A stretch of DNA of 64,000 nt from Eledone cirrhosa (lineage: Eukaryota), in assembly GCA_964016885.1 (NCBI GenBank), contig OZ024759.1:11656001-11720000 (forward strand), given 5' to 3'. A program made the position numbers and the translations under genes. Positions 28,591 to 62,821 of this stretch are shown piece by piece (the stretch's first letter is position 1; every line of letters starts with the position of its first letter). The notes under the pieces are model-generated. The model was given only the letters and a program-made list of their open reading frames with translations. It made no database searches and had not been told where the DNA came from.

Positions 28591-29516
28591 TTAACTCATC
28601 CTATGGACTGAGTGGTCTTACCATTGGATATTTCTACCAAACTTATACTACAGTATATATATATATATATACATATATATATATATATATAAACATATAC
28701 ACATATATATATATATATATATATATATATATATATATATATACATATATATATATATATAAACATCCCGTCCCACCACCTCCACCCCATCCACACCGCC
28801 CCTTTAAGTTATGTTGGTCCCACAACATCCAGGCTGAAACAAATGAGATCGTGTAGGTGTCACGACAAAAAACACAGTCCACGCTGTAAATGTGGCCGTG
28901 TAGGCAACACGGTAAAAACCTCCCAGCCCCACACTGTAAATGTGGTTGGTGTTAGGAAGGGCATCCAACTGTAGAAAACCCGCCAGACAGTCCTATGCGA
29001 GCAAGACAACCACTCTTGCCTCAAGTGGGAAAACCCCCGTCCAAACCCATGCAAGCGTGGAATACGGACGCTAAACCTGATGATGATCCAAAATTAAGAT
29101 AAATTAAATTAATTTAATCTAAATCAAAATTATGGGTGTCATGCCATAATGGCATGCGCCATATCACCCGGAAAATAAGCTCAATGATTCTATCGAGTAG
29201 GTCCGAGCATTTTATAATAACTAGAATTTGATTAACATATATATAAACATGAATAATCACAGGAGATTATTCATGTTTATATATATGTTAATCAATTTCT
29301 AGTTATTACATATATATATAAATATATATATATATATATATATATATATATATATATTTATATATATTTATAATAACTAGGAATTGATTAACATATATAT
29401 AAACATGAATAATCTCCTGTGATTATTCATGTTTATATATATGTTAATTAAAACTTTTTAAATGGAAGTTGAAGTTGAAAGGTATGTCAAATCTATCTAT
29501 TTATAAGACTGTTTAT

Positions 29517-29592
29517 ATTGTATTTTGTCTGATGAAGTCATAACATATTTTTAATATGATATCCCTGAAATATATATAATGAAATAAATATG
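29517..29592 (+). ncRNA. Hammerhead motif, family A
   Basis: tattttgt CTGATGA (29529) ...stem II... GAAA (29567) tatata TA atgaaata. Confidence 0.65.
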
Positions 29593-30551
29593 GTTTTATA
29601 AATATAGTTTCCATTTATTTAATATCGTAAATATACTCCAAATACTTGTTGAGTGCTTTTATATCAGTTATAAATATTTACTCGTTGTAACCCAACAATT
29701 TAAATAAAACTTTGCATATATATATATATATATATATATATATAGTACATTATGAAGAGAGAAGAAACATTAGATATAATTAGTAATAAGATGTATCATG
29801 CCTAAACTGCTTCTAAATTCCTCGACTACGTAGTTTTGTGGCATAATCACTTTATAGCTCTGATACTGGTTCAATCTAATCCATTCAGATTGGTTAGTCC
29901 CAGTTATTCATAGAGCAACATCGGTTAAGGTTGGCACCATTAACTCAAGGATGGATGTGGATATATTCATGTATATGTGTTTGTCCGCATGAATCTGTGT
30001 GTTTCTCTCTCTCTCTCTCTCTCTCTCTCTCTCTCTATATATATATATATATATATATATATATATATATATATATATATATATATATATATATAAAGAA
30101 AAATAGATGAAATCGAAAATGCAACTGGAGTCTTATTTTTTTTTTAAATATATATATTTATTTGGTTCCTTTACCGGTTTCGCAGTTCTTCTGCTTTTCA
30201 AAAGGTGAGTTGAGATGGAGGGTCTGTGGTTTTTCTCACATCTGTAGTATATATATATATATATATATATATATATATATATATACAATATATATGTATA
30301 TATATATACATATATATATATATATATATGTATATAAAAGGAAAGCACAAGCGAGGGACAGTCTCTTCTTCAGTTGTCTGCTAGAGATCACGGACATTTC
30401 AACGCATTAAAGACAACGTGATCTCCAGCAGGCAACTGAAGAAGGGATTGACCCCTGTTTGTGCTTTTCTTTTATTTTTAAATACACTTTATCAAGTAAC
30501 TACACAGCTCCCTTTTTCTTCCATATATATATATATATATATATATATTTT

Positions 30552-30905
30552 CAATCGAAAGGTTGTGAGTTCAATTCTCAGACCGAGTGATGTGTTGTTT
30601 CCTTGAGCAAGACACTTTATTTCACATTGCTCCAGTTTACTCAGCTGTAGAAATGAGATGATAGGGACTGGGGTCCCTATCATTCCACTGCAAAGTGGTC
30701 GTGGAGGTGCCACGGCAAAAAAGCACCCAGCACTCACTGTAAATGAGGTTGGTGTTAGGAAGGGCATCCAGCTGTAGAAATCAAACCAGAATCAGTTCCC
30801 ATATGAGCAAGACAAGGTCAGCCGACCGGACACTGCCCACAACAGGACAACCCGTCTAACCCATGCTAGCGTGGAAGAACGGACGTAAAACGGTGATGAT
30901 GATGA
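30552..30905 (+). mobile_element. 5'-truncated SINE family 1 fused to a different RTE-type tail
   Basis: Family-1 body to ~30800, then a CCCGTCTAACCCATGCTAGCGTGGAA...GATGAT tail. Confidence 0.75.
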
Positions 30906-31125
30906 TATATATATATATATATATATATATATATATATATATATATAGAATAGGGTATAAATATCAAAGGAGAACATGACCCTCCCAAAGTATAACAATA
31001 TATATATGTATATATATATATATATAAATGAAGTAATTCCGTTGGAAAAGTCCAGGAAAAAAGAGTGCTCTATGTAGGTAACAGAGCTTAATAGTTATGT
31101 AATAAACAACATAAGGCAATTATTC

Positions 31126-31179
31126 CATTTACCAGTGGTTTCTTAAAAGCAAAAAATGTTGCTTTCAATCATCAGAATG
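31126..31179 (-). ncRNA. Type-I hammerhead ribozyme motif
   Basis: Minus strand: catt CTGATGA ttgaaagcaa-catttt-ttgcttttaa GAAA cc-act-gg TA aatg. 10-bp stem II, GUA cleavage triplet. Confidence 0.8.
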
Positions 31180-31534
31180 AAAAAATCCTGGTCTGTTTAT
31201 TGAATTTGGATTTTTCCAAATCCAAATGGAATAATTGCCTTATGTTGTTTATTACATAACTATATATAATATATAAGCAAAGGGATATTTAATTTGTTGG
31301 TAATTCAACAAATATATTTATAACTGATTCAGAGCACTAGATAGGTTTTCTGGAGTATAATATCAATGATATTAATAAATGGAAACTATTTTTATAAAAC
31401 CATATTTGTTCTATTATATATATATTTCAAGGGTACCAAAACTTTGGTACGCTCTCATCAGATGAAATACAAAGTTTGTTTTATAAATAGTGACATATCC
31501 AGGAATCAGACCTTAACGGTTCAAGTTCAGAACT

Positions 31535-60480: not shown

Positions 60481-61480
60481 AATATGACTAATAGATGTAT
60501 TTTAGTTATTATCCAGTAGGAACTGAACTCTGACATATATAAAAATGTAACGGAAATAGATATCATTATGATTTGGTCTTTTAAAATTAGAATTATCATG
60601 TTAGAATCATAATTAAATTTGCCTTGGTTTTTTTTTTATTAACTTAATTTATAGACTCCATTGTAAATTGAGAAAAGCCTAATTTGTCAAACTCTTTAAG
60701 CATTGTTCCCTCGGCCCATTTTTCGATCAGCAAAAAACTGAACAACAATAATAACAATAAAATATCTAGGTCTCTCTATCTCATAAAATGACATATTTTG
60801 AAGGAATTTTTAGAAAAGTTTTCATATTTTCTCCTTATTTCTTTTCTGATTACTTTTCCATTTTTTTTTCAGTTTTTTGGTCATTTTCTAATATAATTTG
60901 GAATGTCTTTTAGTTTTTTTTCTTTTTTTTCATCTTTTTACAAATTTTTTTTTTACTATTTATGTTTTTATTTTTGCGTAGTTATTATTATTTTTTATTT
61001 TTTCATACAGTGATTTTTGTGTTTATGTGTTTATATATATATATATGTGTGTGTGTCTGTGTGTATATATATATATATATATATAACTGAAATTCCGTTT
61101 ACATTCTAACTTGTCTTACTGAAAGCTTTTCCATTGTTTCAATATATATTTTTTTTTTTTCTGAAACCTATCAACTTCTAAATTTCGATGTGAAATCAAT
61201 GTTGAAATAATTTTGTCAGTGACAGATTTTTGCTAAAGTTCACAATAATCTATAAATTTGCTTTGTATAAATGTATAGTCATAAGGGCACTGCATTGACA
61301 TACAGAGTTTCTTGGGCATTTTAAACCTGGTGGAGCCCATCTCCTCTCCAGATCTGAGTGCAGCAGATTTCTTCCAGTGAAAGAAAGTGAGAGAGAAGAC
61401 ATGAGAAAGAGATATAGAACAAGAATCAACCCAGTTCTGGACTGGTACTTTAGATATATATATATATATATATATATATA

Positions 61481-61918
61481 CGATATTAAATAAATGGAAA
61501 ATATATTTATAAAACCATATTTATTTCATTATATATATTTCAGGGATATCATATTAAAAATATGGTATGCCTTCTTCAGACAAAATACAATATAAACAGT
61601 CTTATAAATAGATAGATTTGACATACCTTACAACTTCAACTTCCATTTAAAAAGTTGATTTTAATGGAAGTTGAAGTTGTAAGGTATGTCAAATCTATCT
61701 ATTTATAAGACTGTTTATATTGTATTTTGTCTGAAGAAGGCATACCATATTTTTAATATGATATCCCTGAAATATATATAATGAAATAAATATGGTTTTA
61801 TAAATATAGTTTCCATTTATTTAATATCGTAAATATACTCCAAATACTTGTTGAGTGCTTTTATATCAGTTATAAATATTTACTCGTTGTAACCCAACAA
61901 TTTAAATAAAACTTTGCA
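61481..61918. mobile_element. Fold-back Penelope-like terminal repeat with two hammerhead motifs (- at ~61517-61593, + at ~61718-61793)
   Basis: Near-perfect inverted arms ~61481-61652 and 61659-61830, each with CTGAAGA...GAAAtatataTA. Flanked by (TA)n. Right arm plus tail is nearly identical to 29455-29716. Confidence 0.7.
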
Positions 61919-61949
61919 TATATATATATATATATATATATATATATAT

Positions 61950-62383
61950 GTAGAAGTTCTATTTAAATTGTTGGGATACAACAAACAAATATTTTTATAA
62001 CTGATATAAAGCACTCAACAAATAATTGGAGTAAAAATACGATATTAACAAATGGAAACTATATTTATAAAACCATATTTATTTCATTATACATATTTCA
62101 AGGACACCAAGTTAAATTATGGTGTGCTTTCATCAGATAAAATATAATATAGAGCAGTTTTATAAATAAATATTAACATACCCTTAAAGAATGCAACTAT
62201 TTCTGTTGGAAGCTCCCGGTAATGGTTGCATTCTTTAAGGGTATGTCAATATTTATTTATAAAACTGCTCTATATTATATTTTATCTGATGAAAGCACAC
62301 CATAATTTAACTTGGTGTCCTTGAAATATGTATAATGAAATAAATATGGTTTATAAATATAGTTTCCATTTGTTAATATCGTA
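61950..62383. mobile_element. Second fold-back family-A element with two hammerhead motifs (- core at 62130-36, + core at 62286-92)
   Basis: Inverted arms ~62038-62200 and 62222-62383. Stem II aagcacacca...tggtgtcctt. Confidence 0.7.
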
Positions 62384-62766
62384 TATATATATTGTTATAC
62401 TTGGGGAGGGTCATATTTGTGTAATATTGCCAGAATTAATAACAGAACACACTCACTGTTTGGTTGGTTTTCGCTTCTCGCTGTCTTTTATATCTGTAAT
62501 CTAGCTTACTCGGTCCTCAATGTTGCCATTGACTGACCGACGGTCACAAATATCACAGATACAATATAGACATAAACACATATATATAGTTTACATAATT
62601 TACATAAATCTTTCGTTGCACATCTGCAACATCGTCAGTGGTGTTATATTTTCCTCCTGTTGTGTTGTATGTCTACACCATATATATATATATATAAAAT
62701 ATATATATATATATATAAAATAAAGTTAAATAAAAGTCAAATGATTAAAATTTAGCTTCGTTTATT

Positions 62767-62821
62767 ACTGCTATATATATTTCAGTGACAGCTATCTTTG
62801 GCTGTGACCTCTTCAGGCAGT
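62767..62821 (-). ncRNA. Minimal type-I hammerhead ribozyme motif
   Basis: Minus strand: actgc CTGAAGA ggtcacagc-caaagata-gctgtcact GAAA tatata TA gcagt. Perfect 5-bp stem I, long stem II, palindromic TATATA stem III. Confidence 0.8.

Follow-up and report, generated by a model that had tools for sequence, protein, structure and literature searches.

Hammerhead motifs at the 3' ends of diverse Penelope-like elements in a 64-kb stretch of the Eledone cirrhosa genome

Background

Among Penelope-like elements (PLEs), the closest described relatives of the sequences studied here belong to the Hydra clade (Craig et al. 2021, PMC8557442). They have one open reading frame (ORF) for a reverse transcriptase (RT) with a C-terminal GIY-YIG domain, RWK-type and DKT motifs and a CxCx5C linker; they carry a hammerhead near the 3' end, target (TA)n, and leave inverted, 5'-truncated copies with a tail at one end. 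All of this recurs in the DNA that we analyzed, 64,000 nucleotides (nt) of Eledone cirrhosa (assembly GCA_964016885.1, contig OZ024759.1, positions 11,656,001 to 11,720,000 of the forward strand; hereafter the window, numbered from its first letter), and in related copies elsewhere in the genome. The published account covers 21 Repbase families and a few more, generally below 3 kb and with tails of 30 to 40 nt, often at one end only, for which the parts of the paper drawn on give no counts. Here we find at least 14 Hydra-type endonuclease linkers, a 3.9-kb unit and tails of 55 to 102 nt, and RT candidates number in the tens of thousands. The same paper names the origin of tandem and inverted PLE insertions as an open question, and lists an octopus family, Hydra-1_Obim, whose hammerhead matches by eye no family of the window. 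An earlier note had read the hammerhead-like motifs of this stretch as a population of non-autonomous ribozyme retroelements. Our analysis suggests that they are, very probably, the hammerhead-bearing 3' ends of many protein-coding PLE families, the short copies and head-to-head foldbacks likely arising when both strands of a cut (TA)n tract prime one cDNA each.

Three further systems invite comparison. The minimal hammerheads of PLEs (Cervera and de la Pena 2014, PMC4209133) are of type I with a short palindromic helix III, form many families per genome, include opposite-strand pairs 100 to 700 bp apart and comprise a U3-A8 core variant, as do those described here; beyond that account, to judge from the parts consulted, are an estimated 3x10^5 motifs, an A at position 4, stems II of 60 to 110 nt and a TATA-like box in loop II. 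For the Poseidon PLE of the lizard Anolis, Frangieh et al. (2024, PMC11167929) describe a tail bounded by two internal RT start sites, with a stem-loop there, and AT-rich targets; both target strands are cut and extended in vitro, a dimer is predicted and ribozyme cleavage is dispensable. The counterparts that we propose are read from sequence; Poseidon belongs to another clade and has a ribozyme overlapping the start of its ORF. Neither the one-tail rule nor the 5'-end pile-up, both counted below, has counts in the available parts of that paper. Non-LTR retrozymes (LTR, long terminal repeat; PMC7229834; bioRxiv 10.64898/2026.07.22.740005) also carry type I hammerheads in short non-coding repeats, but form head-to-tail tandem arrays, whereas the window copies are single or head-to-head and seven of their families trace to ORFs. 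Neptune-clade PLEs, finally, have a Cx2-5CxxC linker before the GIY-YIG domain (PMC8557442); our family H has Cx4CxxC, within the C-terminal 210 or so amino acids (aa) that were seen.

Results

Hammerhead motifs in the window

A type I hammerhead descriptor (stem I of at least 4 bp, CUGANGA, stem II, GAAA, stem III, UH) matched the window 13 times, six times on the + strand and seven on the - strand. Dinucleotide shuffles (100 each) gave a mean of 0.12 when made in 200-nt blocks and 0.07 over the whole window, with a maximum of 1, so that the 'more than a dozen' motifs claimed beforehand stand far above background. The window has 31% G+C and 286 TA tracts of at least 12 nt, and chance matches in AT-rich DNA were considered; they are ruled out by these counts and by covarying stems. 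Patterns made for single families (A1, A2, A3, B and so on are labels coined for the present analysis) recovered ten family A motifs, about the number previously given, at 29521, 31415, 31537, 40266, 48149, 54093, 61530, 61723, 62088 and 62278, two motifs at 39468 and 39512, and single ones at 31130, 59774, 62772, 30172, 21928 and 63291. Two motifs overlooked before (831 and 62605) belong to family B. The patterns also recover positions 6718 and 11089, formerly taken for CGATCG half-sites; these are in fact 5'-truncated copies of a hammerhead with a stem II of about 110 nt. Overall, members of nine families beyond A were found. The CTGANGA core order holds for the strict motifs, whereas those at 30168, 21930 and 63286 carry family-wide core variants instead; the weak hammerhead suspected at 4869 is a decayed copy (4860..4960, +) that retains the core and has lost GAAA.

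The stems of family A covary. In an alignment of 12 rows, one of them cut at wrong coordinates and mostly gaps, 95.1% of 224 cells are paired and 13 are altered on both sides, a pairing level reached by none of 500 shuffles; slid partners pair at 35 to 53%. With the core and three helices bearing covarying pairs, the motifs belong to type I. Family B was not assigned to type III, there being no UH before its first stem. These are, by their sequence, hammerheads of the PLE pseudo-LTR kind, for which cleavage is a prediction only; as the earlier note had it, they are dense, diverse and adjoin (TA)n, which flanks nearly all displayed 3' ends when read by eye rather than by a formal enrichment test. 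Many of them sit in local inverted repeats (foldbacks), and PLE ends together cover 6,279 bases, about a tenth of the window.

The suspicion that the motifs are unannotated was well founded: Rfam reports no hammerhead in the window at gathering score and none at E<=10 in 61480-63460, its matches being microRNA-like hairpin noise and two tRNA-like ones. That no motif encodes protein locally was likewise borne out, since tblastn of the 64 kb finds no PLE ORF.

Upstream continuation into Penelope-like ORFs

The idea of a non-autonomous population found little support when families were extended upstream in other genomic copies. Seven of them (A1, E, F, G, I, J and H) continue into PLE ORFs there, and their window copies are therefore 3' ends of autonomous families.

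Family A1 gives the fullest picture. The query 61690-61917 has 495 candidates in the genome, and all 40 that were scored are 100% identical to the query end; their flanks run upstream through a UTR (untranslated region) of about 1.4 kb into a same-strand GIY-YIG C-terminus. One complete copy consists of (TA)n, an inverted 1.35-kb tail-less arm, a pseudo-LTR, a 742-aa ORF, the 1.4-kb UTR, a pseudo-LTR with tail, and (TA)n, with a hammerhead repeat flanking the RT plus GIY-YIG ORF on each side. The unit measures 3,892 nt, beyond the Hydra-clade tendency to stay below 3 kb, because of its long 3' UTR. Its hammerhead lies near the 3' end on the sense strand, and its insertion into (TA)n is read from displayed flanks.

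The single frame encodes an RT (YRDD at 352) followed by a C-terminal GIY-YIG domain (IIY..YVG at 620-637). RWR at 37 corresponds to RW[KR] in 69 of 74 aligned relatives and SDKT at 117 to DKT in 68 and DKG in one; the CxCx5C linker at 601 is found in 63, against none of the 74 for Cx2-5CxxC. Further on come CDLC at 699, E705, N717 and CRH at 726 (CxxC in 68 relatives, CxH in 73); judged by conserved columns, CCHH is absent. Pfam had no match for this ORF or for six relatives, and by sequence the PDB offers a weak match to a retron RT (E 0.015). An AlphaFold model (predicted local distance difference test score, pLDDT, 89) has telomerase TERT as its best PDB fold match (E 2e-9). The closest named protein, from Argonauta hians, is 38% identical. 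A 200-aa piece of the RT has 35,903 candidates in the genome; the best 150 were scored and are 95 to 100% identical, 24 of them in open frames of at least 744 aa, and A1 is therefore a young, large family with many near-identical intact ORFs.

A same-strand Hydra-type ORF end lies 170 to 185 nt upstream of family E in at least 7 of 30 loci, about 1.1 to 1.2 kb upstream of G in 4 of 30, about 1.0 kb upstream of J in 4 of 30 and about 2 kb upstream of I in 2 of 13 extended loci; for F such an ORF is found upstream in one of seven extended loci, and in locus L031. Family H, for which the genome search was seeded from sequence upstream of its window copy, leads, in 3 of 30 loci, to a Neptune-like endonuclease lying 1.4 kb upstream, with the Cx4CxxC linker before a C-terminal GIY-YIG. 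By these motifs, six of the seven traced families are of Hydra type and one is Neptune-like. Among the loci fetched, Hydra-type linkers come in at least 14 distinct sequences, one of 15 clusters being a microsatellite artefact.

Several loci have features of their own. In family F (L285, L031) CA/TA-rich DNA in the 3' UTR is enclosed by two hammerhead repeats about 1.3 kb apart; this retrozyme-like unit in an autonomous PLE may be flanking DNA captured as far as the following tail. (TA)n and (CA)n tracts occur in the 3' UTRs of families I, F and H (L289, L031, L305), and in L031 an A1 element is inserted in the UTR of family F; PLEs may spread their own (TA)n targets via such tracts. A further abundant PLE family has a Neptune-type zinc-finger linker (L014, L028, L029, L282).

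Ends, tails and foldbacks

All 14 references have two 3' end positions, a tail end and a short end 55 to 102 nt upstream, 3' ends being counted only if they touched a TA tract. One tailed and one tail-less arm were found in 136 of 137 same-family foldbacks and in 21/21 of later loci (157/158 overall). Central matches of A1, D, E, F and J came from tailed queries; in the families without a tailed query (G, I, V, H, C, A2, A3, Z and B) the rule held in 56 foldbacks of 56. A hairpin, RCTC...GAGY, seen as ACTC/GAGT and GCTC/GAGC, opens the tail in nine of the 14 references, against 73 of 7,000 shuffled tails. The families, said beforehand to be unrelated in their flanks, are thus not entirely so. 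A second, diverged tail hairpin, changed on both sides, stands 30 nt before the ORF start in the A1 5' UTR (L031).

The two arms of a foldback differ in length by more than 15 nt at 51 of 139 junctions and by more than 50 nt at 44. In A1, 29 of 36 rows (a few of which represent a repeated locus) are asymmetric, with differences up to 3.6 kb. Either arm can be the longer one, and in long insertions arm lengths are independent. Thirty foldbacks of family D measure 187 to 213 nt and have one centre, while their tail-less ends vary. Partial tandems are common among PLE copies. In full-length A1 copies the upstream repeat often extends past the ribozyme and starts do not gather at the cut site, which argues that the template is not cut there.

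5' ends and TATA-like boxes

Longer copies of D, D2, H, Q, V and A1 contain a TATA-like box, preceded in D and H by a CCAAT-like one. Among 111 unselected copies, 55 have their 5' end at TATA+24..36, about 29 nt past the box (D 8/14, D2 7/13, H 6/13, Q 9/15, V 22/36, A1 3/20), as do 20 of 29 matches in held-out stretches (sample 2, below). In E, F, G and J, 5' ends cluster either at short palindromes or where stem I begins; pile-ups in C (-72) and J (-220) were discarded as reference artefacts. On the simplest reading, held with less confidence than the overall one, many short copies would be complete cDNAs of an RNA leader that runs from start site to tail.

A sequence resembling a 5' splice site is kept about 47 nt before the core in A1, A2 and A3 (window 61683-61690 and 62238-62246). 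Introns are known in PLE leaders.

Ribozyme variants and folding

Family H has U3 with A8 in 8/8 and 26/27 copies, a covariant pair known from Schistosoma PLEs (PMC4209133). In family J position 4 is A in 27 of 30 loci, the other three being off pattern. In family I, C stands at position 4 in 18 of 30 and position 9 is mostly G, so that its ribozyme may be dead. The hammerhead of family V has the U3-A8 core, and its loop II, 37 nt long, contains the TATA-like box; three whole copies were seen, and most begin within loop II. The stem II of family K is paired over about 110 nt. In folding tests palindromic loops III pair between two copies and not within one, in agreement with the dimer idea of PMC4209133. 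Hammerheads lie on both strands of the window, and the window seems to belong to a host gene; this hints weakly that monomers may cut little.

Genome-wide abundance

In forty evenly spaced 10-kb stretches (sample 1) the strict descriptor matches 52 times (shuffles: 0.85), 11 of these within a single array of 310-nt units; Hydra-type ORF covers 8,928 of the 400,000 bases. Nineteen further stretches (sample 2; 590 kb in total) contain 41, of which 19 are in one 468-nt array. With arrays counted once, 65 motifs in 590 kb amount to 110 per Mb and extrapolate to about 3.3x10^5 in the 3.0-Gb genome, counting strict motifs and leaving out variant cores and long stems II. Bootstrapping sample 1 gives 195,000 to 442,000 per genome, and a stratified bootstrap with the second array counted in full 265,000 to 648,000. 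A variant-core scan of the 590 kb was noisy (16 matches against 0 to 6 in shuffles).

Published figures are about 2,000 to 9,000 minimal hammerheads per genome (PMC4209133). For a coral the figure is more than 6,000, and for axolotl retrozyme copies reach 120,000 (PMC7229834); the top Naiad PLE has about 37,000 published copies. The main text of a 2026 paper on Octopus vulgaris repeats contains neither 'ribozyme' nor 'Hydra', and a literature search on Penelope, octopus and hammerhead, whose coverage left out most subscription papers, returned only PMC8557442 as bearing on the subject. From their sequences we conclude that these elements are families newly added to a known kind, the Hydra-clade and Neptune-like PLEs, at record-like abundance. 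What goes beyond the cited literature is the scale, the counted one-tail rule, the 5' ends behind a TATA-like box, the common tail hairpin, the fixed core variants and the box within loop II.

The two arrays, L172:281-3381 (G000:C3:190000001+; 11 units of 310 nt seen) and L343:458-9027 (G000:C22:12000001+; 19 units of 468 nt seen), have one hammerhead per unit, a palindromic 4-nt loop III and no ORF, and resemble non-LTR retrozymes. The combination that marks the latter, head-to-tail order with one hammerhead each and no ORF, is found in these arrays and not in the window copies.

Individual insertions and other features of the window

Family A1, to which the full-length element belongs, has a 3' end with tail at 29452..29715 (+; hammerhead 29521-29586, predicted cut after 29578) and a foldback at 61481..61917 (hammerheads 61530-61587, -, and 61723-61788, +) whose tail, 61830-61917, is on the right arm only. 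Both the A2 foldback at 31275..31649 (hammerheads 31415-31469, -, and 31537-31597, +) and the A3 foldback at 61950..62381 (62088-62144, -, and 62278-62342, +) have it on the left arm only. An A2 3' end lies at 48042..48257 (+; hammerhead from 48149, imperfect stem I), and tail-less A3-like ends at 40212..40375 (+; hammerhead 40266-40331) and 54045..54190 (-; 54085-54149).

Of the families linked elsewhere to Hydra-type ORFs, E is present as a foldback at 39430..39650 (hammerheads 39468-39502, -, and 39512-39546, +; only the right arm tailed), G as a tail-less 3' end at 62718..63131 (-; hammerhead 62767-62820, predicted cut 62772), I as a tailed one at 63153..63450 (-; hammerhead-like 63286-63376 with variant core and a stem II of about 60 nt) and J as a foldback at 21813..22035 (hammerhead 21928-21973, -, A at core position 4) and fragments at 46906-47023, 57300-57400 and 63569-63639. 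The family F foldback at 31027..31263 (-) has its hammerhead on the tailed arm (predicted cut 31130), the core being lost from the short arm. Family H, linked elsewhere to the Neptune-like endonuclease, has a tail-less 3' end at 30096..30247 (-; hammerhead 30168-30205, U3-A8 core).

The minimal D foldback at 59685..59866 is centred at 59815, with an intact hammerhead on the tailed (-) arm (predicted cut 59774), and both of its arms start about 28 nt past the family's TATA-like box; a decayed D-related foldback lies at 7015..7203 (+). Family V has a tailed 3' end at 63731..63870 (-) that begins within loop II and holds the 3' half of the hammerhead only. Family K has a 3' end truncated within its stem II at 6616..6793 (+) and a relative at 11037-11130 (-), which account for the two supposed half-sites (6718 and about 11090). 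Family B has a foldback at 584..1144 (core 831-868, +; tail on the right arm) and a tail-less 3' end at 62393..62679 (-; hammerhead-like core 62605-62642, weak stem I). The C foldback at 6243..6578 is truncated downstream of the hammerhead and has its tail on the right arm.

Other foldback families sit between TA tracts at 212-557, 24945-25222, 29100-29446, 30337-30522 and 32132-32321, with no hammerhead found in the copies seen; the one at 24945-25222 has the one-tail shape. The tRNA-like matches (10843-10916 and 25553-25610) are probably heads of tRNA-derived short interspersed nuclear elements (SINEs), and the window is crowded with SINE-like repeats ending in (GAT)n. Fragments of the 3' part of RT genes of the long interspersed nuclear element (LINE) type lie at 31657-32044, 53150-53691, 52416-53009, 34045-34536 and 37327-37735, two of them inverted about a TA tract. 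Long minisatellite arrays at 14396-18103 and 18556-19419 (27-nt and 24-nt units by translated repeats) give rise to spurious long ORFs. Exon-like stretches occur at 51059-51148 (+) and around 4033-4290. The former translates to 30 aa, which may resemble UNC-13/Munc13; a PDB search with it was empty. The window may lie in introns of such a gene.

Discussion

The question arises as to how one family could generate full-length copies, short copies and foldbacks with a single tail. In the pathway that we favor, the pseudo-LTR would hold a polymerase II promoter, and RNA would start about 29 nt past the TATA-like box. The PLE protein would bind the hairpin at the tail start, its RT-endonuclease would cut both strands of a (TA)n tract, and a dimer would prime the two strands, with the tail end as the start for one RT and the short end for the other. 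Each cDNA would reach the RNA 5' end or stop early, and microhomology would join the two into a head-to-head foldback; priming both strands from different start sites would account for one tail and free arm lengths. Use of the promoter-proximal tail would yield a product of only 130 to 450 nt, which would explain the abundance of short copies. The ribozyme would be carried along uncut, being probably weak as a monomer and active at most in dimers or with protein help.

Several results weigh against this pathway. For families B, C, D, K, V, A2 and A3 no link to an ORF was established, and clades were assigned by motifs, without a tree of labelled references. The count of 55 in 111 must be read knowing that the TATA-like boxes were chosen after the pile-ups were known and that D and D2 matches may count double; A1 fits the box rule poorly (the 3 of 20 given above, and 2 of 4 in held-out stretches), and in E, F, G and J no box stands at the required distance from the pile-ups. 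The lowest-energy fold of the A1 hammerhead monomer differs from the ribozyme fold. Arm-to-arm divergence equals between-locus divergence in four of five families, and therefore cannot tell one template from two. Finally, at 88 of 139 junctions the arms agree in length to within 15 nt, frequently at short palindromes, which would also be expected if foldbacks were a single cDNA (or antisense template) snapping back, with an endonuclease then stripping the tail from one arm. Self-priming has been proposed (PMC3846280), as has endonuclease resolution of the tail (PMC8557442). We nevertheless find this scenario quite unlikely, given the junctions with arms more than 50 nt apart (in A1 up to thousands of nucleotides), the fact that either arm may be the longer, and the mapping of the two ends to two RT start sites in the lizard element (PMC11167929).

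The untraced families D, V, K, B and C could also be true non-autonomous units of promoter, ribozyme and tail, self-transcribed and moved in trans by PLE proteins, in the manner of retrozymes or SINEs. The uniformity of the 30 D foldbacks, the two ORF-less arrays and the paired hammerhead repeats in the family F UTR point that way, and pseudo-LTRs acting in trans have been reported (PMC3846280). However, the D loci were chosen by a query containing the foldback centre, their tail-less ends vary as separate events would have it, longer D and V copies continue upstream into promoter-like sequence, and 7/7 families followed far enough reach an ORF, so that we regard this as unlikely. Alternatively, ribozymes might cut and circularize the RNA, the RT running round the circle and leaving repeats and tails as rolling-circle by-products, as proposed in PMC4209133. 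Such a process would suit the common partial tandems and the pairing of loop III palindromes between two co-folded copies, but a pile-up of 5' ends behind a TATA-like box is unexpected from a circle, most V copies start within the ribozyme, and the lizard element does not require cleavage in vitro (PMC11167929); it is distinctly improbable. Foldbacks do resemble the short inverted repeats of miniature inverted-repeat transposable elements (MITEs). Yet MITE-like DNA transposons, or chance motifs, can practically be dismissed in view of the motif excess over shuffles, covarying stems, asymmetric ends and RT ORFs upstream.

Taken as a whole, the two-strand priming pathway leads to a broader proposal that we advance tentatively, at slightly under an even chance. 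Eledone cirrhosa may hold the largest hammerhead set yet described (about 3x10^5), produced by a recent, perhaps ongoing, burst of Hydra-clade elements, and its insertions may reveal the PLE integration step: asymmetric-dimer priming of two strands from two fixed RNA sites next to a conserved tail hairpin, mostly as promoter-to-tail leader copies, with the promoter in some families lying within the ribozyme, where only the 3' copy could be whole.

Conclusions

Countable insertion rules bear on the open integration step of PLEs, for which the in vitro work in the literature searched concerns one element only, and they make direct predictions for assays. The genome is a natural library of hammerhead variants missed by Rfam, and repeat annotators could mistake PLE ends of this kind for SINEs or MITEs, or list them as unknown. 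Should even some of the motifs cleave, copies within introns would matter for host pre-mRNA.

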